A program made the translations under genes and the position numbers. The notes beneath the pieces were generated by a model that did no database searches, was not told the origin of the DNA, and saw nothing but the letters and a program-made list of their open reading frames with translations. 64,000 nucleotides of DNA from Patescibacteria group bacterium (GTDB lineage Bacteria; Patescibacteriota; Patescibacteriia; 2-01-FULL-39-33): assembly GCA_041649575.1 (NCBI GenBank), contig JBAZMW010000001.1, forward strand, positions 23,944 to 87,943, in the 5' to 3' direction. Below are positions 2,450 to 42,776 of the stretch, one piece after another; position 1 is the stretch's first letter; each line of letters opens with the position of its first letter.

Positions 2450-2881
2450 ATGTTATTAAGCTTAATGCAAATCCAGGCCAATATTAATATTGACCCGGAA
2501 AAGATGAAGCAACTGCAAGATCAGATAAATCAGCTATCGAACGCAGCCAACAGTCCGGCGGCCAAACAGGCGGTGAGCGGTTTGGCGATATTTGCCGGCT
2601 GGATGCTGGGTCTGGTGGTGGTACTGGGCATCATTATGTTAGTCATTACCATTATCAGCTTGATCGATATTTATCATTGGGGCATAACCGATAAAGCGCT
2701 TTTCGAGAAAGCCAAAGAAGAAAAAAAGAAATGGTTCATTAATTTGATTTTGATTCCCTTTATCGCCGGTGTAGTAATGATCATTCCTTTTGTCGGCTGG
2801 GTGATCGGCGGGGTGATGTATATTTATTGGTTGGTAATGGTTTTGGTATATTTTTTCGGGGTGCGCAAGAAACTGGTTTAA
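2450..2881 (+). CDS. small integral membrane protein (about 3 TM segments), function unknown
   Basis: 143 aa with a strong SD (GAGAGGAGGTG) 7 nt upstream. It has hydrophobic stretches and a K/E-rich loop. Confidence 0.5.
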   Translation: MLLSLMQIQANINIDPEKMKQLQDQINQLSNAANSPAAKQAVSGLAIFAGWMLGLVVVLGIIMLVITIISLIDIYHWGITDKALFEKAKEEKKKWFINLILIPFIAGVVMIIPFVGWVIGGVMYIYWLVMVLVYFFGVRKKLV

Positions 2882-2895
2882 TAAAAAAGTTTATT

Positions 2896-2925
2896 AAAAT
2901 TCCCCCGATTAATCGGGGGAATTTT
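2896..2925 (+). terminator. intrinsic terminator-like hairpin
   Basis: The sequence 'aaaattcccccgatt aatcgggggaatttt' forms a perfect 12-bp stem flanked by A/T runs, directly after the 143-aa gene. Confidence 0.55.
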
Positions 2926-2987
2926 AATATTGACAAAGGCAAATCTTTTTAGTAAAACCGACATCCCTAGTTTTTTCCTATAATCTT

Positions 2988-3016
2988 TTGACACCCTTGA
3001 CTTTTTCCTGTATAAT
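2988..3016 (+). promoter_or_regulatory. consensus sigma70-type promoter upstream of uvrA
   Basis: TTGACA (2988-2993), a 17-nt spacer, then TATAAT (3011-3016). uvrA's ATG is at 3063. Confidence 0.5.
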
Positions 3017-3062
3017 AAACGTTAATTTAAAAACTTAAAAATATTGTTTTAAGCGACAGGCC

Positions 3063-5936
3063 ATGAAAGATAAGATTTCTATCCACGGAGCGCGAGTCAA
3101 TAATTTGAAGAATATTGATATTGATTTGCCCAAAAATAAATTAGTGGTGATCACCGGGCTCTCCGGCTCGGGCAAATCGTCTTTGGCTTTTGATACCGTT
3201 TATGCCGAAGGGCAGAGGCGTTATGCCGAGAGTTTATCCGCTTACGCCAAGCAATTTCTGGATTTGATGGACAAGCCGGACGTCGACAGCATTGAAGGCA
3301 TGTCGCCAACCGTTGCCATTGATCAAAAATCGTCTTCCGCCAATCCGCGTTCCACGGTGGGGACAATCACGGAAATCTATGATTATTTGAGGTTGCTTTA
3401 TGCCAAAGTGGGAGTTGTCCATTGCCATTTGTGCGGCCAGGAGGTGAAAAAACAAACCCCCGATCAGATTTTGGAACAGCTTCTAAAATTACCGGCTGAT
3501 TCAAGGGTTCAGATTTTGGCGCCGGTGGTCTTTAATAAGAAAGGCACGCACACCAAACAAATCGAAGCCATCGCCAAAGCCAATTACGAATTGTTGCGTA
3601 TTGATGGTCATTTTTACAATATTGACGAGGCCAAGCAATTGAACTTGGACAAAAATTTCAGTCATACCATCGAAGTTTTGATCGACAGTTTAAGTTTGAC
3701 CAGCGGTATCAGCAGTCGCGACAAAGAAGACGTTGACTGGCAGCGTCTAAATAAAGCCATCATGCTGGCCCTGGATTATGGCAACGGTTTTATCAATGTT
3801 CATCTGCCGGAAAGCGACAAAGACTTGCCTTTCAATTTGTATTATGTTTGCCATCGTTGCGGCATTAGCATTGCCGAAGTGGAGCCGCGGAGTTTTTCTT
3901 TTAATTCGCCTTTTGGCGCCTGCCCGGCTTGCCGGGGGCTGGGTATAAAATTGGTGCCGGACAGGGATTTGATCATTCCCAACAAAAGACTGACTTTGGC
4001 CGAAGGCGCCATTAAGCCCTGGTCCAGAAATTTCGCCTCGCAAAATTCCAATTTTAAGTTGTTGGAAAAAGTAGCCCAGAAAAATAATTTCAGCCTGAAT
4101 TCTCCGGTAGCGGAATTACCCGACAGGGCGCTGGAGATTATTTTTAACGGCAGCGGTGACGAGGTCTATGAAGTCGACGGTCTGTCGAAGACCGAGGCGA
4201 GAAGAAAAATGGTTTTTGAAGGCGTGATAAAGTTTTTGGACAATAAATACAGTGAAACTAAATCGGAATATCTGCAAAAAACACTGGAAGACTACATGAG
4301 AATTTCCACTTGCCCGGTTTGTCATGGTACCAGATTAAAACCAGAAAGCCTGGCAGTCAAAGTGGTGGACAAAAACATCGCTCAAGTCAGCGGCTTGGAT
4401 GTTGATCGGTTGTTAGAATTTTTTAATGACCTGGAAAAGAAGTGGAAAGCGACTTCGCGCGAAGGAAAAATTTCCAAGCAGATTTTTAGGGAAATCACCA
4501 AAAAGTTGGGTTTTTTGAAAAACGTCGGACTAGACTATTTGACTTTAAGCCGCAGCGCTACCACCTTGGCCGGCGGCGAAGCCCAGCGCATAAAGCTGGC
4601 GACGCAAATCGGCTCGGGTTTGGAGGGAGTGGTTTATATTCTCGATGAGCCGTCAATTGGCCTGCACGCCAGGGACAATGGAAAATTAATCGACACTCTG
4701 AAGAAGTTGCGCGACAAAGGCAATTCGGTGATTGTGGTGGAACACGACGAGCAGATGATGCGGGCCGCGGATTATCTTATCGATATCGGACCGGGCGCGG
4801 GAATTTATGGCGGAGAGATTGTGGCCGAGGGTACTTTTGACCAAGTCAAAAAAAATAAAAAATCCATTACCGGCCAGTACTTGTCGGGAGTCAAAAGAGT
4901 GGAAATCAAAAAAGAATTGCATCAGGGCAATGGCAAAGCCATCAAAATTATCGGCGCCAGTGAGTTTAATCTGAAAAATATTGACGTCGAGATTCCGCTG
5001 GGCAAGCTGGTTTGCATCACCGGCGTCTCCGGCAGCGGCAAGTCGACTTTAATGACAGAAATTTTAGCCAAAGCTCTGGCTAATCGTTTTTACCGCACCA
5101 AGGATTTGCCGGGCAAACACAAGGAAATCAGAGGTTTGGATAATCTAGACAAGGTGATAGACATTGATCAGTCACCCATTGGCCGCACGCCACGCAGTAA
5201 TCCAGCCACGTACACGGGGGTGTTTACTTACGTCCGTGATTTGTACGCTAATTTACCGGAGAGCAAGGTGCGCGGCTTCAAGCAAGGCCATTTCAGTTTT
5301 AACGTTAAGGGCGGCGGTCGTTGCGAGACCTGTGCTGGTGACGGCTTGGTGAAAATCGAGATGCAATTTTTGCCAGATGTCTATGTGGAATGCGAGGAAT
5401 GTCATGGCAAGAGATATAACAAGCAGGCGCTGGAAATCCATTATCGGGGCCAGGACATCTCCGATGTTTTGCAAATGTCGGTGGCCGAAGCCAAAAAGTT
5501 TTTTACCCTTAATCAACAGATAGTCGACAAGCTGAATATCCTGGAAGAAGTTGGTTTGGGTTATTTAAAGCTGGGGCAAAGCGCCACCACACTCTCGGGC
5601 GGCGAAGCGCAAAGAGTGAAATTGGCTACCGAATTATCACGTCGTCCCACTGGCAGAACTTTATATATTCTCGACGAGCCGACCACCGGTTTGCATTTTG
5701 ATGATATAAAGAGATTATTGCAGGTGTTAAATTGCCTGGTGGAAAAAGGCAATTCGGTGTTGATCATAGAGCATAATTTAGATGTGATCAAATCCGCCGA
5801 CTGGATTATTGATTTGGGGCCGGAAGGCGGCAACCATGGCGGCGAAGTGGTGGCCGAGGGCACGCCCCAGGCGGTGGCCAAAATAAAAAATAGTTATACC
5901 GGCCAGTATTTGAAAAAAATTTTAAAACAAGCTTAA
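3063..5936 (+). CDS. uvrA: excinuclease ABC subunit A
   Basis: 957 aa with two ABC ATPase modules. Walker A '[14 protein letters not shown]' and '[10 protein letters not shown]' are present. The signature 'LSGGEAQR' occurs twice. Zinc-finger Cys clusters are present. Confidence 0.95.
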
Positions 5937-7077: not shown

Positions 7078-10000
7078 ATGTCTACTTATAAAGAGTTTTT
7101 AGATGGTGACGGTGAAAAGAAGTGGCAAGACTATTGGGAGCAAAAAAAATTATTTGCGGCCAATGATTTTGACGACCGGCCCAAGTATTATGCCTTGATA
7201 GAATTTCCTTATCCTTCGGCCGAGGGTTTGCACGTAGGTCATCCGCGCAGTTATACCGCGCTTGATATTGTGGCTAGAAAAAGACGGATGCAGGGTTTTA
7301 ATGTGCTATACCCAATTGGTTTTGACGCTTTTGGACTACCGGCAGAAAATTTTGCTATCAAAACCGGGACCCATCCGAAAATTCAAACCGATAAGAATAT
7401 CGACAATTACCGTCGACAACTCAAATCGATCGGTTTTTCTTTTGATTGGGACAGGGAAGTCAATACGACCGATCCCAAGTATTACAAATGGACGCAGTGG
7501 ATTTTTTTACAGCTGTTCAAACACGGCTTGGCTTACAAAGCGGAAGTGCCGATTAATTTTTGTACCTCTTGCAAGGTAGGTTTAGCAAATGAGGAAGTGG
7601 TGGGTGGTAATTGCGAACGTTGTGGCGGTGAGGTGGTCAAAAAGATTAAAAGCCAGTGGATGCTAAAAATCACCGACTATGCCCAGCGGTTGGACAAAGA
7701 TTTAGACCAGGTAGATTTTTTGGAAAAAATAAAAATTCAGCAACGGAATTGGATTGGCAAGAGCGAAGGAGCGGAAGTTGATTTTGCAATTAGTGGTAGT
7801 GAGGAAAAAATAAAAGTCTATACTACTCGGCCGGACACTTTGTTTGGCGCGACCTACATGGTGCTTTCTCCAGAGCACGAGCTGGTACAAAAATTAAAGG
7901 ATAAAATTAGCAATTTTCAGGAGGTCGAAAATTATCTTAGTGAGGCGGCCAAGAAATCTGATTTGGAACGCACTGAACTCAACAAAGAAAAAACCGGCGT
8001 GGAGTTAAAAGGAATTAAGGCGATAAACCCAGTTAATAATGAAGAGATTCCGATTTGGATTTCCGACTATGTGTTGGCCGGTTATGGCACGGGAGCGATT
8101 ATGGCTGTGCCGGCACATGATGAGAGAGACTTTTTATTTGCTTTGAAATATAATTTGCCGATTATCCAAGTTGTTGAATCATCAGATAAACAAGATGTTA
8201 TTAATATTAATATTCATGATGATGATCGGAGCGACACGGTTGAAAAACTAAGATTGTTGGCAATAGATAGTGAGCCAGTGGCACCGACTATACGGCGGTA
8301 TCATTTTTCCACTGAAAAACTAAATTCTTTAATGGATATTTTAAAAGGTAATAAGGTGGGGAAAGAAGATGATTATAAGTTGATAAAAAAAGCAGTTAAT
8401 TTTACTTTATATACAATCGAAGATAAGACGGAGATCGTTTTTACAAAAATATTTACCGGTGATGGAGTACATATAAATTCTGATTTTTTAAACGGCTTGG
8501 GTCTGACAGATTCCCTGGCCGAGATTATAAATTGGTTGGAAAAAAATAAATGTGGTAAAGGCGCTACTATTTACAAACTGCGTGACTGGGTATTTTCTCG
8601 CCAGCGTTATTGGGGCGAACCGATTCCTTTGGTCTTTTGCGAAAACTGCAAGAACAAGAAACAGAAGGCGTTGCTAATTCACGGTTTTGAGGGCACGGGT
8701 GATGGCAATTGGTTTGCTTGGATTAAACAAGAATTAGAGAAAGCTGGTTTTGAGGTATTCAACCCGACGATGACCACCTCGGAGCATCCGGTGTTGGAGC
8801 AATGGTTTGAGGAATTAATGCCGTTTGTCGAGCAGATGGGCGAAGATGATATCATCGTCGGTCACAGCTTGGGCGCTAAGGCGGCTTTGCATTTGATAGA
8901 GAAAGCGGGCAAGAAGTTTAAGGCCTTGTATTTAGTGGCGCCGGTGCTAAATGCGGCTTCTGACAAGGAATATGATTTATTATCTGAAAAATGGCAGGGC
9001 TCGGACATTGATTTATTAAAAAAGTTTTCTTCGGAGCCGTATGATTTCAGAAAGATCAGTGATTTAGTAGAAAGTAAAAATGTTATTTTTTCCGATGATG
9101 ATCCGTATATAAGAGTTGAGTCAAAAAATATTTTGCCGGCTGGTTGGAATAGACAAGTGTGGAATGGTTTTGGGCATTTTCAGAATAAAGAGATTTCCGA
9201 GTTGTTAAATTTAATTTCCAAGAGCAAAAATACCGGCTGGGTGGCTTTGCCGGAAATAGAGTTGCCGTTGGTTTTGCCGGAAATAAAAGAATTTCAGGCT
9301 GGCGACGACGGCGAGTCGCCATTATCCAAAGAAACAAAATGGGTGGCAACCACTTGTCTGAAGTGTGGCGGATCGGCCAAGCGGGAGACCGACACTATGC
9401 CACAATGGGCGGGCAGCTCTTGGTATTTTTTGCGCTACATCGATCCGCAAAATAATGTGGCTTTTGCCGATGAGAAAAAGCTTAGTTATTGGACACCAAT
9501 AGATTGGTATAATGGCGGCATGGAGCATACGACCCTACATTTGTTGTATTCTAGATTTTGGCACAAATTCTTGTTCGACTTAGGATATGCGCCGACAGCT
9601 GAGCCTTATGCCAAGCGTACTAGTCACGGCATGGTTTTGGGCGAGGGTAGCGAGAAGATGAGTAAGAGCCGCGGCAATGTGGTCAATCCTGATCAGGTGA
9701 TCAAGGATTGTGGCGCCGATACTCTAAGAATGTATGAGATGTTCATGGGCCCATTTGATCAGGCGATTCCCTGGGACACTAAGGGCGTGCTGGGCGTGAG
9801 AAGGTTTTTAGAAAAAGTGTGGTTGTTTTTTGGCGATGAGAAAAATATTACTAAAGAGGCTGATGAGGAGCTAGAAAGAGTGTTAAATAAAACAATTAAA
9901 AAAGTAGGCGAGGATATTGAGACGATGCATTTTAATACCGCTGTTTCAGCGATGATGATTCTCGTCAATAAAATAACGGAGAAGAAGTCGGCGACTAAAG

Positions 10001-10326
10001 AAATTTTGGAAAAATTTCTGATAATATTGTCGCCATTTGCACCGCATTTGACGGAAGAACTGTGGGGCCGACTAGGACATCAGAATAGTATCGCTTTGGA
10101 AAAGTGGCCGGCTTATGACAAAGTGTTAATAAAAGATGAGCAAGTGGAAATAGTGGTGCAAGTCAATGGTAAGGTAAGAGCTAAAATTTTGGTGTCGGCC
10201 GATATTTCGGAGGGTGAAGTAGTGGAGTTGGCTGGGCAGAATGAGAATGTTAAAAAATATTTGGAAGGGCAGCAAATTAAGAAAACGGTCTTTGTGCCGG
10301 GCAAATTGATTAGTTTTGTGGTTTAA
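7078..10326 (+). CDS. leuS: leucyl-tRNA synthetase carrying an inserted alpha/beta serine-hydrolase domain
   Basis: Class I aaRS motifs are present: HVGHPRSYTALDIVARKRRMQGFNVLYPIGFDAFGLPAE, KMSKS ('KMSKSRGN') and a C-terminal anticodon-binding region. The ORF track starts at 7024 but MSTYKEF at 7078 is the likely start. At about 1082 aa it is ~230 aa longer than typical because of the insert. Confidence 0.9.
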   Translation: MSTYKEFLDGDGEKKWQDYWEQKKLFAANDFDDRPKYYALIEFPYPSAEGLHVGHPRSYTALDIVARKRRMQGFNVLYPIGFDAFGLPAENFAIKTGTHPKIQTDKNIDNYRRQLKSIGFSFDWDREVNTTDPKYYKWTQWIFLQLFKHGLAYKAEVPINFCTSCKVGLANEEVVGGNCERCGGEVVKKIKSQWMLKITDYAQRLDKDLDQVDFLEKIKIQQRNWIGKSEGAEVDFAISGSEEKIKVYTTRPDTLFGATYMVLSPEHELVQKLKDKISNFQEVENYLSEAAKKSDLERTELNKEKTGVELKGIKAINPVNNEEIPIWISDYVLAGYGTGAIMAVPAHDERDFLFALKYNLPIIQVVESSDKQDVININIHDDDRSDTVEKLRLLAIDSEPVAPTIRRYHFSTEKLNSLMDILKGNKVGKEDDYKLIKKAVNFTLYTIEDKTEIVFTKIFTGDGVHINSDFLNGLGLTDSLAEIINWLEKNKCGKGATIYKLRDWVFSRQRYWGEPIPLVFCENCKNKKQKALLIHGFEGTGDGNWFAWIKQELEKAGFEVFNPTMTTSEHPVLEQWFEELMPFVEQMGEDDIIVGHSLGAKAALHLIEKAGKKFKALYLVAPVLNAASDKEYDLLSEKWQGSDIDLLKKFSSEPYDFRKISDLVESKNVIFSDDDPYIRVESKNILPAGWNRQVWNGFGHFQNKEISELLNLISKSKNTGWVALPEIELPLVLPEIKEFQAGDDGESPLSKETKWVATTCLKCGGSAKRETDTMPQWAGSSWYFLRYIDPQNNVAFADEKKLSYWTPIDWYNGGMEHTTLHLLYSRFWHKFLFDLGYAPTAEPYAKRTSHGMVLGEGSEKMSKSRGNVVNPDQVIKDCGADTLRMYEMFMGPFDQAIPWDTKGVLGVRRFLEKVWLFFGDEKNITKEADEELERVLNKTIKKVGEDIETMHFNTAVSAMMILVNKITEKKSATKEILEKFLIILSPFAPHLTEELWGRLGHQNSIALEKWPAYDKVLIKDEQVEIVVQVNGKVRAKILVSADISEGEVVELAGQNENVKKYLEGQQIKKTVFVPGKLISFVV

Positions 10327-13661: not shown

Positions 13662-14555
13662 ATGCAAAAAGTATTTCTAAGAATAGGTTTAGTAGCTGTG
13701 ATTTTGGCCTTTTTAACTTTGCCGGCCAAGGCCTATTATGATTTGGGCCGGCCGGCGGGATATGTTAATGATTACGCCGGAGTTTTAAGCGCGGCCGACA
13801 AAACGGCGCTGGAAAACAAATTGACGCAGTTCGAAGCGGATTCTTCCAATGAGATTGCCATAGCGACAATCAAGTCGCTCCAAGGCGATACGATAGAGAA
13901 TTTTGCGGTGAAGTTATTCGAGTCTTGGAAGATCGGCAAAGAAGACAAGGATAACGGCGTCTTAATTTTGGTGGCGGTAGAGGACAGAAAAATGCGGGTT
14001 GAAGTTGGCTATGGCCTGGAAGGAGCGCTGACCGACGCCCAAAGTTATTGGGTAATCAACAACGTCATGAAGCCGGCTTTCAGAGAAAGTAACTATTACG
14101 GAGGTCTTAATGGAGCCGTAGATAAAATAGTTGACGCCACCAAGGGCGAATATGTACCCAGCGAAACTCCAAAAAATTCTGAAGAGGGGGGTTTGTTAAA
14201 TATCGTTTTTGGCTTGATCTGGCCTTTCGCTTTTATTTTGATATTTTTAGCCAGTATTTTGTCGAGGAGCAAATCGTGGTGGGCCGGAGGAATAATTGGC
14301 TTAGTTATAGGGGTGGTGGTCGGATTGTTCGTCGGTTTCATTTGGGGTGTGGTTGGCGTTTTGATCCTGACGCCCCTGGGCCTGTTGTTTGATTTTTTTG
14401 TTTCCAAACAATATCAAAAGGGCAAAGCTTCGGGACATTATCCCTGGTGGATTGGGGGGCGCGGCGGATTTGGCGGCGGCGGTAGCGGCGGCGGCGGTTT
14501 TGGCGGATTTGGCGGCGGCAGTTCGGGTGGTGGCGGAGCGAGCGGTGGGTGGTAA
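13662..14555 (+). CDS. TPM-domain (YgcG-like) membrane protein with Gly-rich C-terminal tail
   Basis: Signal peptide, then the TPM domain 'YVNDYAGVLSAADKTALENKL…NEIAIATIKSLQGDTIENFAVKLFESWKIGKEDKDNGVLILVAVEDRKMRVEVGYGLEG', then TM segments and a GGxGG tail. LemA plus TPM is a common gene pair. Confidence 0.75.
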   Translation: MQKVFLRIGLVAVILAFLTLPAKAYYDLGRPAGYVNDYAGVLSAADKTALENKLTQFEADSSNEIAIATIKSLQGDTIENFAVKLFESWKIGKEDKDNGVLILVAVEDRKMRVEVGYGLEGALTDAQSYWVINNVMKPAFRESNYYGGLNGAVDKIVDATKGEYVPSETPKNSEEGGLLNIVFGLIWPFAFILIFLASILSRSKSWWAGGIIGLVIGVVVGLFVGFIWGVVGVLILTPLGLLFDFFVSKQYQKGKASGHYPWWIGGRGGFGGGGSGGGGFGGFGGGSSGGGGASGGW

Positions 14556-14956
14556 AAAATATGGAAAACAAATACAAAGGCGTAATAATAGAAGAAAGCC
14601 TAGAAGACAAAACTGTTTTAGGAAGTGTCAGTATTTTGGATACGAAAATAGAAGAAGTAACTAAAAAACATAGAACTCCATGGGTTACTAAGTGGACTTT
14701 GCACACTGTAGAAATACCCGAGGATAGAGTTGAGATTATTACAGGACAAATCAGTGAATCTTTAGATAAAAACCACGCCTGGTATGCCGATTTTAAAAAT
14801 AGAGAGCATCATTACATTGTTTTCCGTGGTAAGGTTTTCTTTGTTGACCGATACAGTAAAGAACAATATGACGAGGCAAAGAAATATGGAATTTCATTGG
14901 GTATTCCGGAATATCAGGTTGATTTTCATCCAGAGGTGAAAGAGTGGGAGAGATAG
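14549..14956 (+). CDS. hypothetical cytoplasmic protein
   Basis: 135 aa with no recognisable motif. It overlaps the TPM gene stop by 7 nt. Confidence 0.4.
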   Translation: MVKNMENKYKGVIIEESLEDKTVLGSVSILDTKIEEVTKKHRTPWVTKWTLHTVEIPEDRVEIITGQISESLDKNHAWYADFKNREHHYIVFRGKVFFVDRYSKEQYDEAKKYGISLGIPEYQVDFHPEVKEWER

Positions 14957-14987
14957 GGTTTACATAATTATTTAGATCAAATACTAC

Positions 14988-15018
14988 GGAGACGCGTGCA
15001 AGCGCGTCCCTGTATTTT
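14988..15018 (+). terminator. intrinsic terminator
   Basis: 'ggacgcg tgcaag cgcgtcc' stem followed by 'ctgtatttttt'. Confidence 0.55.
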
Positions 15019-15088
15019 TTGGCTGATTTTTGCTATAATTTATCCTGTTAGACAAAATTTTAAATTTTTTATTTGTCTTGCAATATGT

Positions 15089-15343
15089 ATGTATTATGTC
15101 TATATTTTGGAATCTATAAAAGATAAAAAATTCTATACTGGCTTTACTAAAAATTTAAAATTTAGATTTGAGCAACATCAAAAAGGATTGGTTGACTCTA
15201 CTAAGAATAGGAAACCGTTTAAATTAATTTACTATGAGGCTTGTCTTAACCAGCAGGATGCTACTAGGAGAGAAAAGTACCTAAAAACGATTTATGGCAA
15301 AAGATACCTCAAGAATCGGCTCGAATCTTATCTAACAGGATGA
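15089..15343 (+). CDS. GIY-YIG family nuclease (UPF0213/SLX1-like small endonuclease)
   Basis: 'MYYVYILESIKDKKFYTGFTKNLKFRFEQHQKG…' is the GIY…YIG motif with conserved R and H/Q. The ORF-track N-terminal extension (14996) runs through the upstream terminator, so the ATG at 15089 is preferred. Confidence 0.7.
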   Translation: MYYVYILESIKDKKFYTGFTKNLKFRFEQHQKGLVDSTKNRKPFKLIYYEACLNQQDATRREKYLKTIYGKRYLKNRLESYLTG

Positions 15344-15347
15344 ATTA

Positions 15348-16472
15348 ATGAAAGTAATTTTTGGAGAAAGCTTGGGTCAGGAAAAGTGGGACGAATTTAT
15401 CAAAAATAATTCGTCTGATTTTGGTTTATTGCAATCAGCTGGTTGGGCTAAGTTTCAGAGAAGCTTGGGCCGGCAAGTTTTTCAGTTAGCAGCGGCCGAT
15501 GAACAGCAAAATATTTTGGCCGTAGCATTAATAATTAAGCAGAAGCTACCACTAGGAAAAAGTTATTTTTATATTCCACGTGGGCCAGTTGTGGTTGTCA
15601 TTGCGAGCGAAGCGAAGCAATCCCAAGTAATAATGGATAACACGGGATCGCCACCTGTCTCGCATGCCTTTGGCAAAGCCTTCGGCGACGCCAGGCCGAG
15701 CCTAGGCGGACGGTCGCTATCGCTTCCTCGCGATGACATTTTGAGTAGTTTGTTTTCTGAAATTGAGAATTTGGCTAAAAAAGAAAAAGCGATTTTTTTA
15801 AGATTGGATCCGGCCTGGGAAAACAGCGAGGCCAGTCTGAATTATTTTAAAAAGCAAAAATTAAAATTTTCCGGACAGGTTCAGCCAAAACAAACACTAA
15901 TTTTAGACTTAACCAAATCAGAAGAAGAATTATTGGCGCAAATGAAACCAAAAACCCGCTATAATATCAAAGTGGCGCAAAAGCATTGTTTAAAAATTGA
16001 CGAAGGTGAGCATTATTTTGAAAATTTTTGGCAATTAATGAAAAAAACTGCCAAACGCGACAACTTTTCGACTCATAGCAGAGAGTATTACTATAAAATG
16101 GTCGAAAACCTAGCGTCGGATAAAGTTGTCAGACTAGTGGTGGCCAAAGACGGCGACAGAGTTATCGCCGCTAATCTAATGGTAGCTTTCGGCTACTGGT
16201 GCGTTTATTTGCACGGCGCTTCCGATTATGGCTCTCGGGAAAAAATGGCGCCCTATTTGTTGCAGTGGGAGGCGATTTTATCGGCCAAAGCCAAAAACAA
16301 AAAATATTATGATTTTTGGGGCGTGGACGAAGACAGCTGGCCGGGGGTGACGCGGTTTAAGACCGGTTTTGCTCTTAAACAGGGTTTCACCCAATATGTT
16401 GGCAGCTGGGATTTAGTGTATAATAAAAGGTGGTATGGTCTATACCGGGCTCTGAAAAAAATAAAAAGCTAG
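15348..16472 (+). CDS. FemAB-family peptidoglycan interpeptide-bridge aminoacyltransferase, interrupted in frame by a 141-bp GC-rich element
   Basis: Its length, 'GLLQSAGWAKFQ' and the C-terminal GNAT-like half with 'YYDFWGV' are typical of the FemX/FemAB (lipid II aminoacyl transferase) family. Confidence 0.7.
   Translation: MKVIFGESLGQEKWDEFIKNNSSDFGLLQSAGWAKFQRSLGRQVFQLAAADEQQNILAVALIIKQKLPLGKSYFYIPRGPVVVVIASEAKQSQVIMDNTGSPPVSHAFGKAFGDARPSLGGRSLSLPRDDILSSLFSEIENLAKKEKAIFLRLDPAWENSEASLNYFKKQKLKFSGQVQPKQTLILDLTKSEEELLAQMKPKTRYNIKVAQKHCLKIDEGEHYFENFWQLMKKTAKRDNFSTHSREYYYKMVENLASDKVVRLVVAKDGDRVIAANLMVAFGYWCVYLHGASDYGSREKMAPYLLQWEAILSAKAKNKKYYDFWGVDEDSWPGVTRFKTGFALKQGFTQYVGSWDLVYNKRWYGLYRALKKIKS
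15597..15737. mobile_element. miniature inverted-repeat element (MITE/RPE-like) inserted in frame in the FemAB-family gene
   Basis: The element is 141 bp, which is 47 codons. It is strongly GC-rich against an AT-rich gene. Its imperfect terminal inverted repeats are 'gtcattgcgagcgaagcgaagc' and 'gctatcgcttcctcgcgatgac'. Confidence 0.45.
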
Positions 16473-16478
16473 ACTTTT

Positions 16479-17669
16479 ATGGCCGATAAAATTAGAGATT
16501 TAATTTTATCTTGTTTCCCCCGCCAGCTTAACCGGCAGATCAAGGAGTTGTATCTTTCTTCGATAATTTTGGTCTTCGCCGAGTCGATGGTTATCATCTT
16601 CGAGCCGGTTTTTTTGTACACTATTTTTTTTAAGTCCCACGGATTTAAAGGCTCGTTGCAACTCTTGTTGTGTTTTTATCTGGTGATTTATCTGCTTTAT
16701 TTCGCCGTCTTGCCTTTGGGGGCTCGTTTTGCCAAGCGTTTTGGCTACGAATCTTCCATTGCTTTGGGAGTTTTTTTTACGGCGTTGCTTTACGGCAGCT
16801 TGTTTATGATCAGTAAATTTTTCTGGCCCTTTACAGTTCTGACCATAATTTTTTATGTTTTGGCTAAAATGTTTTATTGGCCGGCCTATCACGCCAATTT
16901 TGCCCGCTTTTCGGCTTCGGGCCAACGCGGTCGACAAATTAGCAATTTGGCCATTTTGGAAACCATAGTTTGCATCGTCGGTCCGCTACTGGGCGGCTTG
17001 ATTCTGAAATTTTTCGGCTTTGAGTTTTTGTTTATTATCGCCTGCGCCTTGATAATTATTTCCAACATTCCCCTACTTATCACCAGGGAACAATTCGAGC
17101 CGAAACCTTTCGAGTATTTTAAAGTCTATAAAGATTTATTTTCTCGGGAAAGAAGAAAAAAGTTTTTTTCCCTGTGGGGCTATGGCGAAGAATTCATCAC
17201 CATGGTCGTTTGGCCAGTGTTTATTTTCACAGTGGTTAAAGATTTCTTAGGCTTGGGCGCTTTGACGGCTTTTTCTTTGTTTTTAACCACCATTGTCTTT
17301 TTATTCATCGGCAGAATCACCGATCGACAAGAAGGCCGGCTAGTTATGCGCTACGGCACAATTTTCTATTCTTTTAGCTGGCTGTTGCGCCTGATCTCTC
17401 GGGGTGTTTTGGGAGTTTTTTTAATTGACAGCTATTCCCGATTGGCCAAGCAATCAATCTCAGTGCCCACGGTGGCCTTGACTTATTCCAAGGCGACACG
17501 AAAAGATTCGTCGGTGATGGGGACAATAGTTTTTTTTGAGATGTCTCTGGTGGTTGGCAAAATCGTTACCATGTTGGCGGCCTTAGTCTTGTTGCAAATC
17601 TTTACTCCAGGCTGGAACTCGATGTTTATTCTGGCCGGACTGATGACTTTACTTTATTTACTTTTTTAA
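16479..17669 (+). CDS. polytopic membrane protein, MFS-transporter-like
   Basis: 396 aa with about 10-12 hydrophobic helices. Paired-half organisation and Gly-rich helices (IVGPLLGGLILKFFG) resemble MFS permeases. Confidence 0.45.
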   Translation: MADKIRDLILSCFPRQLNRQIKELYLSSIILVFAESMVIIFEPVFLYTIFFKSHGFKGSLQLLLCFYLVIYLLYFAVLPLGARFAKRFGYESSIALGVFFTALLYGSLFMISKFFWPFTVLTIIFYVLAKMFYWPAYHANFARFSASGQRGRQISNLAILETIVCIVGPLLGGLILKFFGFEFLFIIACALIIISNIPLLITREQFEPKPFEYFKVYKDLFSRERRKKFFSLWGYGEEFITMVVWPVFIFTVVKDFLGLGALTAFSLFLTTIVFLFIGRITDRQEGRLVMRYGTIFYSFSWLLRLISRGVLGVFLIDSYSRLAKQSISVPTVALTYSKATRKDSSVMGTIVFFEMSLVVGKIVTMLAALVLLQIFTPGWNSMFILAGLMTLLYLLF

Positions 17670-42447: not shown

Positions 42448-42539
42448 GGAGAGATGGCTGAGTGGCTGAAAGCGGCGGTTTGCTAAACCGTTATACGTCC
42501 TTTTCGGGCGTATCGAGGGTTCGAATCCCTCTCTCTCCG
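42448..42539 (+). tRNA. tRNA-Ser (anticodon GCU)
   Basis: Acceptor GGAGAGA/TCTCTCC, anticodon loop TTGCTAA, long variable arm, T-loop GTTCGAATC. It folds as a canonical cloverleaf. Confidence 0.85.
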
Positions 42540-42540
42540 T

Positions 42541-42578
42541 ATCAGGAATTTAGCCATAATTATGGCTAAATTCCTGAT
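42541..42578. other. perfect 17-bp-stem hairpin immediately 3' of tRNA-Ser
   Basis: 'caggaatttagccataa tta ttatggctaaattcctg' is a perfect palindrome. It is a terminator or processing element. Confidence 0.5.
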
Positions 42579-42776
42579 AAAGAAAGTGAAGGGATGAGAA
42601 GGGCAGTAATGAGCCAAGTCCCGACTTTAGTCGGGGCGCAGGCGAGATGCCGACAATTCCGAGCTGGTGCAGGAATTGTCGCTGCCCAGGCCGCGAATCC
42701 CTCTCTCTCCGCCTTCGCCCGGCCAAAGCGGGCTTCGGCGGACAAGTCCGCAAAAAGCACCTAATTTAAATCATAG

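Follow-up and report, generated by a model that had tools for sequence, protein, structure and literature searches.

In the stretch of 64,000 nucleotides analysed here (Patescibacteria group bacterium, contig JBAZMW010000001.1, positions 23,944 to 87,943; called the window below), an open reading frame (ORF) at 15348..16472 on the plus strand encodes a FemAB-family peptidoglycan bridge-forming transferase of 374 amino acids (Pfam FemAB, E value 6.9e-48), and this otherwise intact gene carries a palindromic element of 141 bp at 15597..15737. The element has a G+C content of 0.589, compared with 0.397 for the remainder of the gene and 0.45 for the window, and reads in frame as 47 stop-free residues (residues 84-130, VIASEAKQSQ...SLSLPRDD), two of the six frames being open through it. 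Every invariant alignment column of the FemAB family is retained in the window protein. Its nearest homologues P0001 and P0002 (331-333 residues, about 63% identity over core columns) lack the 47 residues, and the locus of P0001 (L003), which is syntenic with the window, keeps the FemAB-MFS gene order. In an alignment with FemX from S. aureus (PDB 6snr), residues 12-84 of the query correspond to residues 9-80 of the chain and residues 130-267 to residues 84-232, and in this alignment the insert stands for the 3-residue link leading from a strand to a helix between residues 80 and 84. The identical 374-residue product was called on two contigs of public assemblies and is listed in three index blocks; on contig k141_2981410 of ENA ERZ27247363, the window corresponds to positions 23,959-87,958. 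With an open frame in an intact gene, the segment most likely becomes a protein loop of 47 residues that has no dedicated function. A preliminary description of this DNA had placed an in-frame, GC-rich block of 141 bp at 15597-15737 and had expected it to be extra with respect to orthologous proteins, and its coordinates, sequence and composition as well as its absence from the orthologues were all borne out.

The element, which has no strand of its own and whose delimitation is based on its sequence, composition and predicted folds and on its absence in P0001 and P0002, consists of two hairpin units joined head to head as a doublet. Unit 1 (15597..15624, plus strand) has the layout GTC-ATTGC-GAGCGAAGCGAA-GCAAT-CCC, that is, a GTC head, a 5-bp stem, a 12-nt loop and the tail CCC. 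Unit 2 (15644..15737, minus strand) reads GTC-ATCGC-GAG...-GCGAT-CCC on its own strand and encloses a structured loop of 79 nt; with respect to unit 1 its stem shows a paired change, T>C being matched by A>G. Between the units lies an AT-rich spacer of 19 nt (AAGTAATAATGGATAACAC, 15625..15643, without strand) for which no match was found elsewhere. The two units are inverted with their GTC heads facing outward, and a T precedes the GTC in both of them, so that TGTC tags are found at 15596-15599 (plus strand) and at 15738-15735 (minus strand). Because the palindrome continues for one base on each side (T...A, 15596-15738), the edges of the element are uncertain by one base. The flanks GTGGTT and ATTTTG contain no direct repeat and no target-site duplication.

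Imperfect inverted repeats of about 22 bp had been described at the ends of the element, and these are real, although less regular than worded: aligned without gaps, the 22-nt ends are Watson-Crick complementary at 14 of 22 positions, or at 17 of 22 when G:T pairs are counted, and a stem of about 22 bp is obtained when two single-base bulges are allowed. The perfect core of the inverted repeat, TGTCAT.GCGAG / CTCGC.ATGACA, has arms of 12 nt (92%), and the chance expectation for the 20-mer of the left arm is 0.00 occurrences in the window. Folding of the element as RNA, proposed in the preliminary description as a check, yielded -67.7 kcal/mol (z = -4.4), a value equalled by none of 200 shuffles, and folding of its two strands as single-stranded DNA (ssDNA) yielded -36.3 and -37.9 kcal/mol (z = -4.1 and -4.75). 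According to these models, the element can form a long hairpin as DNA or as mRNA. A search of positions 14500-17000 against Rfam gave no match at E values up to 1, and both units escape a unit finder that demands a perfect stem of 6 nt.

Copies of the element were searched for in the window with exact and mismatch patterns, blastn, an inverted-repeat scan, peptide signatures and relaxed motifs. No second copy was found in these 64 kb or in a further 9.5 kb of the same contig (73.5 kb in total), and a near-match at 5317 turned out to be native coding sequence lacking the structure of the element. Two other palindromes of the window, a perfect one of 19+19 nt at 2892-2929 (TATTAAAATTCCCCCGATT/AATCGGGGGAATTTTAATA) and an imperfect one of 37 nt at 42527-42592, are unrelated to it.

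Spread of the hairpin units and their link to Ssn-like genes

When contigs of a viral collection and species-representative genomes of GTDB were scanned with the pattern GTCATTGCGAG-N(100-130)-CTCGCRATGAC, matches were obtained in 29 viral-collection contigs and, on the GTDB side, in at least 120 genome stretches belonging to many phyla. The hosts among the matches listed are Alpha-, Delta- and Gammaproteobacteria, Chloroflexota, Bacteroidota, Cyanobacteria, Elusimicrobia, Omnitrophota, Clostridia, Helicobacter, a metagenome-assembled genome (MAG) of Rickettsia sp. and five Patescibacteria lineages (L052, L078, L087, L137, L141), and the head-to-head layout is common to all pattern matches. 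Among 535 family units taken from the matched loci, the base preceding GTC is T in 278, C in 233, G in 17 and A in 7, and the short stem covaries, with ATTGC/GCAAT in 485 units, ATCGC/GCGAT in 31, and the combinations T-G and C-A in 16 and 3, respectively; the tails are CTC (230), CCA (100) or CCC (59). Unit 1 of the window is 100% identical over 27-29 nt to units at many unrelated loci from unrelated phyla, for example in Methylocystis (L107), a deltaproteobacterium (L075), a member of the Anaerolineales (L071) and an alphaproteobacterium (L116). Within the window element, matches elsewhere were limited to this unit, and for the interior of the element, including that of unit 2, no homologue was found in 1.5 Mb of related loci. 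Target-site duplications were also absent from the approximately 37 viral-contig copies whose flanks were inspected. The unit of what we call the GCGAG variant follows the formula (Y)GTC-ATTGC-GAG...GCAAT-C, and the two units of the window doublet have the more general form (Y)GTC-ATYGC...GCRAT-CYN. The preliminary description had considered the element probably a dispersed one of this lineage, and neither part of that view found support, as the family spans many phyla, unit 1 being identical in Chloroflexota, in Alpha- and Deltaproteobacteria and in further groups, and as blastn and pattern scans of 73.5 kb of the contig return a single copy.

Most copies of the family are intergenic, and the lengths of 119 copies show no bias to multiples of three (remainders 0, 1 and 2 in 44, 42 and 33 copies). 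Six of seven copies situated in long open frames have a length divisible by three, several of these frames looking spurious. The sole convincing in-frame case among the seven is a 138-bp copy in the linker of a MiaB protein from Elusimicrobia (L095). The copies at L034, L079, L085, L096, L124 and L059 were rejected as in-frame copies, since they lie upstream of genes or between them or in G+C-rich, seemingly spurious open frames.

Rickettsia palindromic elements (RPEs) are reportedly about 100-150 bp long, are said to lie in frame in protein genes of a reduced genome and to give the encoded protein an additional loop. Their number per Rickettsia genome ranges from tens to hundreds. The window element is likewise a palindrome of about 100-150 bp that lies in frame in a protein-coding gene and is missing in orthologues, and elements in the Rickettsia sp. 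MAG (L130, L136) share with it identical GTCATTGCGAG...CTCGCAATGAC ends, exact termini of 11 nt and the same unit layout. It differs from the RPEs in its host, a Patescibacteria bacterium, in its interior, which is unrelated to that of the Rickettsia MAG elements, and in its number, with one copy in 73.5 kb as against tens to hundreds per Rickettsia genome. The two Rickettsia MAG elements (L130 1750-1888, L136 4235-4372) are nested, GCGAG-type outer units surrounding inner hairpins that resemble dRS3/NTS (GTCATTCCCGCGTAGGCGGGAATC), and therefore the GCGAG and dRS3/NTS-like variants coexist and combine in one element.

The units share their marks with a known superfamily of repetitive extragenic palindromes (REPs), the CGTC-tagged REPs (Di Nocera, De Gregorio and Rocco, 2013, BMC Genomics 14:522; PMC3733652). 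These are described as carrying at one end of each unit the tag CGTC, often TGTC or else CCTC, as having stems that open with A-T pairs and CCA-like tails, and as occurring mostly as head-to-head dimers, with intragenic copies in several species and no associated transposase, and RPE-4 and RPE-6 of R. conorii as well as dRS3 of Neisseria are counted among their members (PMC3733652). The window units agree with this description in the TGTC tag, the AT-first stem, the short C-rich tail, the head-to-head dimer and the in-frame copy. In consequence, the resemblance to Rickettsia palindromic elements proposed in the preliminary description was upheld, both by the marks shared with the superfamily that includes RPE-4 and RPE-6 and by the ends found in the Rickettsia MAG. 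By sequence and architecture, the family seen here is placed in one superfamily with RPE-4 and RPE-6 of Rickettsia and dRS3/NTS of Neisseria. In contrast to the published account, the peptides LAMT, ARND and VIAR of the GCGAG type are missing from the table of intragenic CGTC REPs, in which peptides of the WMPAFAGMT type are given, and Patescibacteria lie outside the five phyla reported (PMC3733652). Literature searches with sequence strings and peptide motifs of the element returned chance primer matches only, and those on palindromic elements in the candidate phyla radiation and on COG2827/UPF0213 returned nothing relevant.

The Neisseria hairpins are known as targets of Ssn, a single-domain GIY-YIG nuclease of 94 amino acids that cuts ssDNA at specific sites (Chenal et al., 2025, Nat Commun 16:2388; PMC11893778). 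These target hairpins are named NTS (CGTCATTCCCGCGMAVGCGGGAATCYRG) and more generally SRM, the ssn gene is flanked by them, and Ssn requires, on ssDNA, a GTC upstream of the stem for cleavage and a C after the palindrome for binding (PMC11893778). Both the upstream GTC and the C after the palindrome are present in the two window units (GTC-AT...AT-C). At the loci selected by their hairpins, five GIY-YIG genes were detected, every one of them at a distance of 0-220 bp from elements and with clusters of units on both sides. In 80 metagenome loci picked for their homology to GIY-YIG, the density of the terminal motif is 3.2 per kb up to 250 bp from the gene and does not exceed 0.54 per kb past 750 bp. 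The GCGAG motif was found within 300 bp of 50 of 67 Ssn-like gene copies, whereas the published SRM search sequence matched at one of them. The GCGAG-flanked nucleases consist of 95-102 residues and have no domain other than GIY-YIG. When they were compared with the GIY-YIG proteins found at loci selected by NTS, matches of 6e-18 to 2e-27 were obtained; one of the latter loci (L294) shows the layout NTS-gene-NTS. Genes for small single-domain GIY-YIG proteins are bracketed by the family in the same manner as ssn is by NTS. No solved structure of an Ssn was found by sequence. These associations mark the GCGAG variant as a class of Ssn-associated repeats that the published motif misses, and as the variant is strongly tied to Ssn-like genes, surveys of Ssn targets undercount it. 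Unlike in the Ssn system, where intragenic copies and Patescibacteria are unmentioned (PMC11893778), the copy described here is intragenic, lies in a Patescibacteria genome and has no Ssn-type gene in its window.

A comparable arrangement is that of the REPINs, which have a GTAG head and an HUH tyrosine transposase (Bertels and Rainey, 2011; PMC3116915). As in the REPIN/RAYT system, a non-autonomous doublet of inverted REP hairpins around a spacer is paired with a single-copy gene of nuclease type that is flanked by the repeats, but here the head is (Y)GTC (TGTC and not GTAG in the window) and the gene is that of a GIY-YIG nuclease. At three loci (L092, L129, L031), tandem arrays of half-units (...GCCTCGCAATGAC) with a period of 22-25 bp were observed, which look like repeated partial duplications of one hairpin end; they adjoin Ssn-like genes in L092 and L129, and at L031 no GIY-YIG gene was found.

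Repeat-coded segments in one loop of FemAB homologues

The window protein was compared with its 120 best FemAB homologues from Patescibacteria. Peptides coded by repeats are present in 11 of the 120, and in nine of these they occupy the same loop, after the motif PRGP. They stem from three repeat families and are read in different frames. The GCGAG type of the CGTC repeats codes for SLRGA...DCFASLAMT in P0003 and P0007 and for VIAS...LPRND in P0026, and the CCYGC type of the CGTC repeats for VIPAKAGI or IPVFTGMT. The published WMPAFAGMT-type peptides correspond to a GTCATTCC(C/T)GC variant, which lies in frame in P0013. As the third family, in-frame peptides of the type VETGHAPSL in P0017, P0026, P0027 and P0032 represent a candidate GTAG type: VETGHAPSL, read from the peptide and not from DNA, back-translates to GTAGAGACGGGGCATGCCCCGTCTCTAC, a GTAG-tagged REP. 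If this back-translation is right, both REP superfamilies would invade the coding DNA of these Patescibacteria genes. No repeat of the GTAG type was found in the window.

At the exact codon position of the window element, P0026 (L001) contains a GCGAG doublet of 159 bp with an unrelated interior. In a neighbor-joining tree calculated from 325 core columns and lacking support values, the window protein groups with the insert-free homologues P0002, P0001, P0004 and P0006, and P0026 is found together with P0050 in another clade, whose closest members have no GCGAG-type insert at that site. This distribution suggests that repeats hit the same spot of FemAB independently, as far as a tree without support values permits.

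The pair P0047 (L237 1501-2517) and P0039 (L238 1234-2247), which are 88% identical at the nucleotide level, presents a filled and a native site. In P0047 a doublet of 66 bp has taken over the site of 63 bp of native coding sequence, and the repeat-coded DCFAMLAMT is found where part of a helix (LEFLFNE) had been. The right junction shows the microhomology CAATGA and there is no target duplication. Because of this pair, at least some doublet events have to be considered as replacements and not as simple insertions.

Origin of the element in the FemAB-family gene

Taken as a whole, the evidence makes it probable that the element is a non-autonomous palindromic repeat doublet of the pan-bacterial CGTC REP family, in its GCGAG variant, that entered the femAB gene by events linked to an Ssn-type nuclease and is tolerated in a loop. 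In the mechanism that we propose, the units would serve as sites at which ssDNA is recognized and cleaved by Ssn-type nucleases, which are small and have GIY-YIG as their single domain, the ssn genes themselves being bracketed by units. A copy would have entered the femAB-family gene by break and repair or by recombination with another copy as template, and a similar event in the close homologue pair P0047/P0039 would have overwritten nearly its own length of native coding DNA. The copy presumably survived because its length is a multiple of three, because it has no in-frame stop and because it fell into a short loop on the protein surface, where additional residues are tolerated.

Several observations weigh against this explanation. 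The stems described for CGTC REPs and NTS units are of 8-9 bp, with loops of 4-5 nt in the CGTC REPs, whereas the units found here have a 5-bp ATYGC/GCRAT stem and loops of 12 and 79 nt. Unit 1 by itself, folded as ssDNA, is a weak hairpin whose 5-bp stem yields -2.7 kcal/mol (z = -0.3). The published SRM sequence, HGTCWYN(0-2)YYVSBRHN(0-5)WNVSBRGN(0-2)RNCYNB, matches the canonical NTS and not unit 1, and it has no match on either strand of the window. Neither an Ssn-type gene nor a second copy was found in the 64-kb window and the additional 9.5 kb of the contig, so that activity in this genome is presumptive. Finally, it is the openness of the frame and the intactness of the gene from which translation through the element is deduced.

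[quoted passage not shown] Such an origin would agree with the terminal inverted repeats, the small size, the foreign composition and the absence from orthologues, but we regard it as quite unlikely, as the flanks GTGGTT and ATTTTG show no target-site duplication, as the element is present once in 73.5 kb, as its termini are common to many phyla, and as the gene adjoining the family encodes a GIY-YIG nuclease (this was the gene aimed at, and no systematic transposase search was made). Furthermore, the CGTC repeats are reported to have no associated transposase (PMC3733652), the covariation of the stem within each unit fits a hairpin substrate and not a repeat read by a protein in double-stranded DNA, and the doublet of P0047 replaces 63 bp instead of duplicating its target. 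The label MITE used in the preliminary description is thus a loose one for an element with the architecture of a head-to-head REP doublet, which is a further example of a known repeat superfamily tied to Ssn-type GIY-YIG nucleases and not a lineage-specific MITE. A small GIY-YIG nuclease gene does lie close by, upstream of the element (15089..15343, plus strand, 84 residues, G+C content 0.20-0.27; Pfam GIY-YIG, 5e-16), and it might itself be responsible, either having arrived with the element as one mobile unit or having its cleavage and repair site marked by the element. It is separated by 254 bp from the element, of which the 64 kb contain no other copy, and this proximity, for which we estimate a positional chance of about 1.4%, speaks for such a role, as do its absence, together with that of a neighbouring 135-residue ORF, from the syntenic locus L234 and the tight linkage of related Ssn-type genes to the hairpin family. 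However, its nearest solved relative is the UPF0213 protein 1zg2 (1.2e-6), and the GCGAG motif occurs within 300 bp of just 2 of 20 gene copies of this UPF0213-like subtype as compared to 50 of 67 for the Ssn-like ones. Moreover, its 11 closest relatives have neither of the two hairpin motifs and lie beside tRNA-like sequences, it is not bracketed by units, its product matches NTS-flanked Ssn proteins at 1e-4 to 1e-7 only, and upstream of most insert-bearing FemAB homologues there is no nuclease gene. The relation of this gene to the element is possible but unproven, and a causal role in either form seems unlikely to us.

An effect at the level of RNA has a still smaller claim and is judged very unlikely. 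The element would then be an intervening sequence or a regulatory hairpin of the femAB mRNA, for example one whose stem of about 22 bp is cut by RNase III such that expression is lowered, or a segment that is removed. The very stable RNA fold would be in accordance with such a role, and hairpins of the REP type are known to affect mRNA stability (PMC3733652). Against it stand the lack of any Rfam match even at E values up to 1, the length divisible by three with its open frame, and a fold that has the same strength on either strand of the DNA. We know of no bacterial mechanism for religating an mRNA, which counts against removal of the segment. The proportion of copies with a length divisible by three, 6 of 7 in long open frames compared with 44 of 119 overall, fits selection for read-through. 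That the segment is a native, fast-evolving protein loop of no mobile origin, G+C-rich and partly self-complementary by chance, is hardly credible. The region after PRGPV does vary in length and sequence among homologues, but a stretch of 27 nt is 100% identical to repeat units of unrelated phyla, the G+C content jumps from 0.40 to 0.59, and a homologue of another clade has, at the identical codon, the same termini with an unrelated interior, so that this explanation is already refuted by the spread of the family, the identity of unit 1 and the comparison with P0026.

With the REP doublet as the preferred reading, palindromic repeats in frame, which had been a curiosity of Rickettsia, are now met, as members of the same superfamily, in a cell-wall gene of Patescibacteria, and a single loop of FemAB-family proteins has been struck repeatedly by repeats of three families. 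The additions to what is known are modest and consist in Patescibacteria as hosts, the recurrent hot spot in the FemAB loop and the Ssn-associated motif variant missed by the published search sequence. Since gene callers translate the repeats, protein families and alignments are contaminated by motifs like VIASEAKQS, DCFASLAMT and LPRND. The clean filled and native sites of P0047 and P0039 offer a starting point for studying how such repeats spread. A bolder generalization, which we put forward tentatively and consider doubtful, would be that in Patescibacteria, and occasionally elsewhere, REP/SRM doublets act as cassettes that overwrite coding DNA by microhomology-guided repair after a cut by an Ssn-type or related GIY-YIG nuclease, possibly that encoded by the neighbouring gene, thereby repeatedly remodelling the FemAB loop and supplying new protein segments, the GCGAG variant being a major uncatalogued class of Ssn targets.

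Neighbouring genes and other features

The GIY-YIG gene of the window was also considered as an Ssn, an assignment that its UPF0213-like character, its low motif linkage, its weak matches to Ssn proteins and the tRNA-side location of its relatives leave unsupported. A small nuclease gene upstream of FemAB as a regular companion of the insert was likewise rejected: L001, with a DUF559 gene, and the window, with its GIY-YIG gene, would fit, but L234, L235, L236 and L237 have inserts without such a gene. At L158, L159, L162 and L164, UPF0213-like GIY-YIG genes directly adjoin sequences that fold like tRNA genes and not hairpin repeats, and these tRNA-gene-like neighbours hint that this subtype may have a different insertion preference.

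Between the gene for a TPM-like protein and the FemAB-family gene, the window contains, besides the GIY-YIG gene, an ORF of 135 residues (14549-14956, plus strand) without a match in Pfam or NCBIfam. Because both are absent at L234, this intergenic slot is considered to have taken up extra small genes. A further small extra gene was seen at the syntenic locus L235, where a gene of the 23S_rRNA_IVP family (2843-3223, 126 residues) is situated between the MFS and RrnaAD genes. The strongest G+C peak in the vicinity (14433-14552, 0.72-0.75) corresponds to the C-terminal tail, rich in glycine, of the TPM-like protein and contains no repeat element, and therefore composition peaks by themselves are no mark of an insertion in this window.

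An insert of a different kind is found in the leucyl-tRNA synthetase (LeuRS) encoded at 7078-10326 of the window (plus strand, 1082 residues), in which a Ser_hydrolase domain of the alpha-beta-hydrolase type (PF06821, 6.2e-17) is inserted at residues 532-700. Among related LeuRS proteins of Patescibacteria, that of L001 contains a hydrolase insert and that of L003 a NUDIX insert, and those of L234, L237 and L239 (818-850 residues) are free of inserts.

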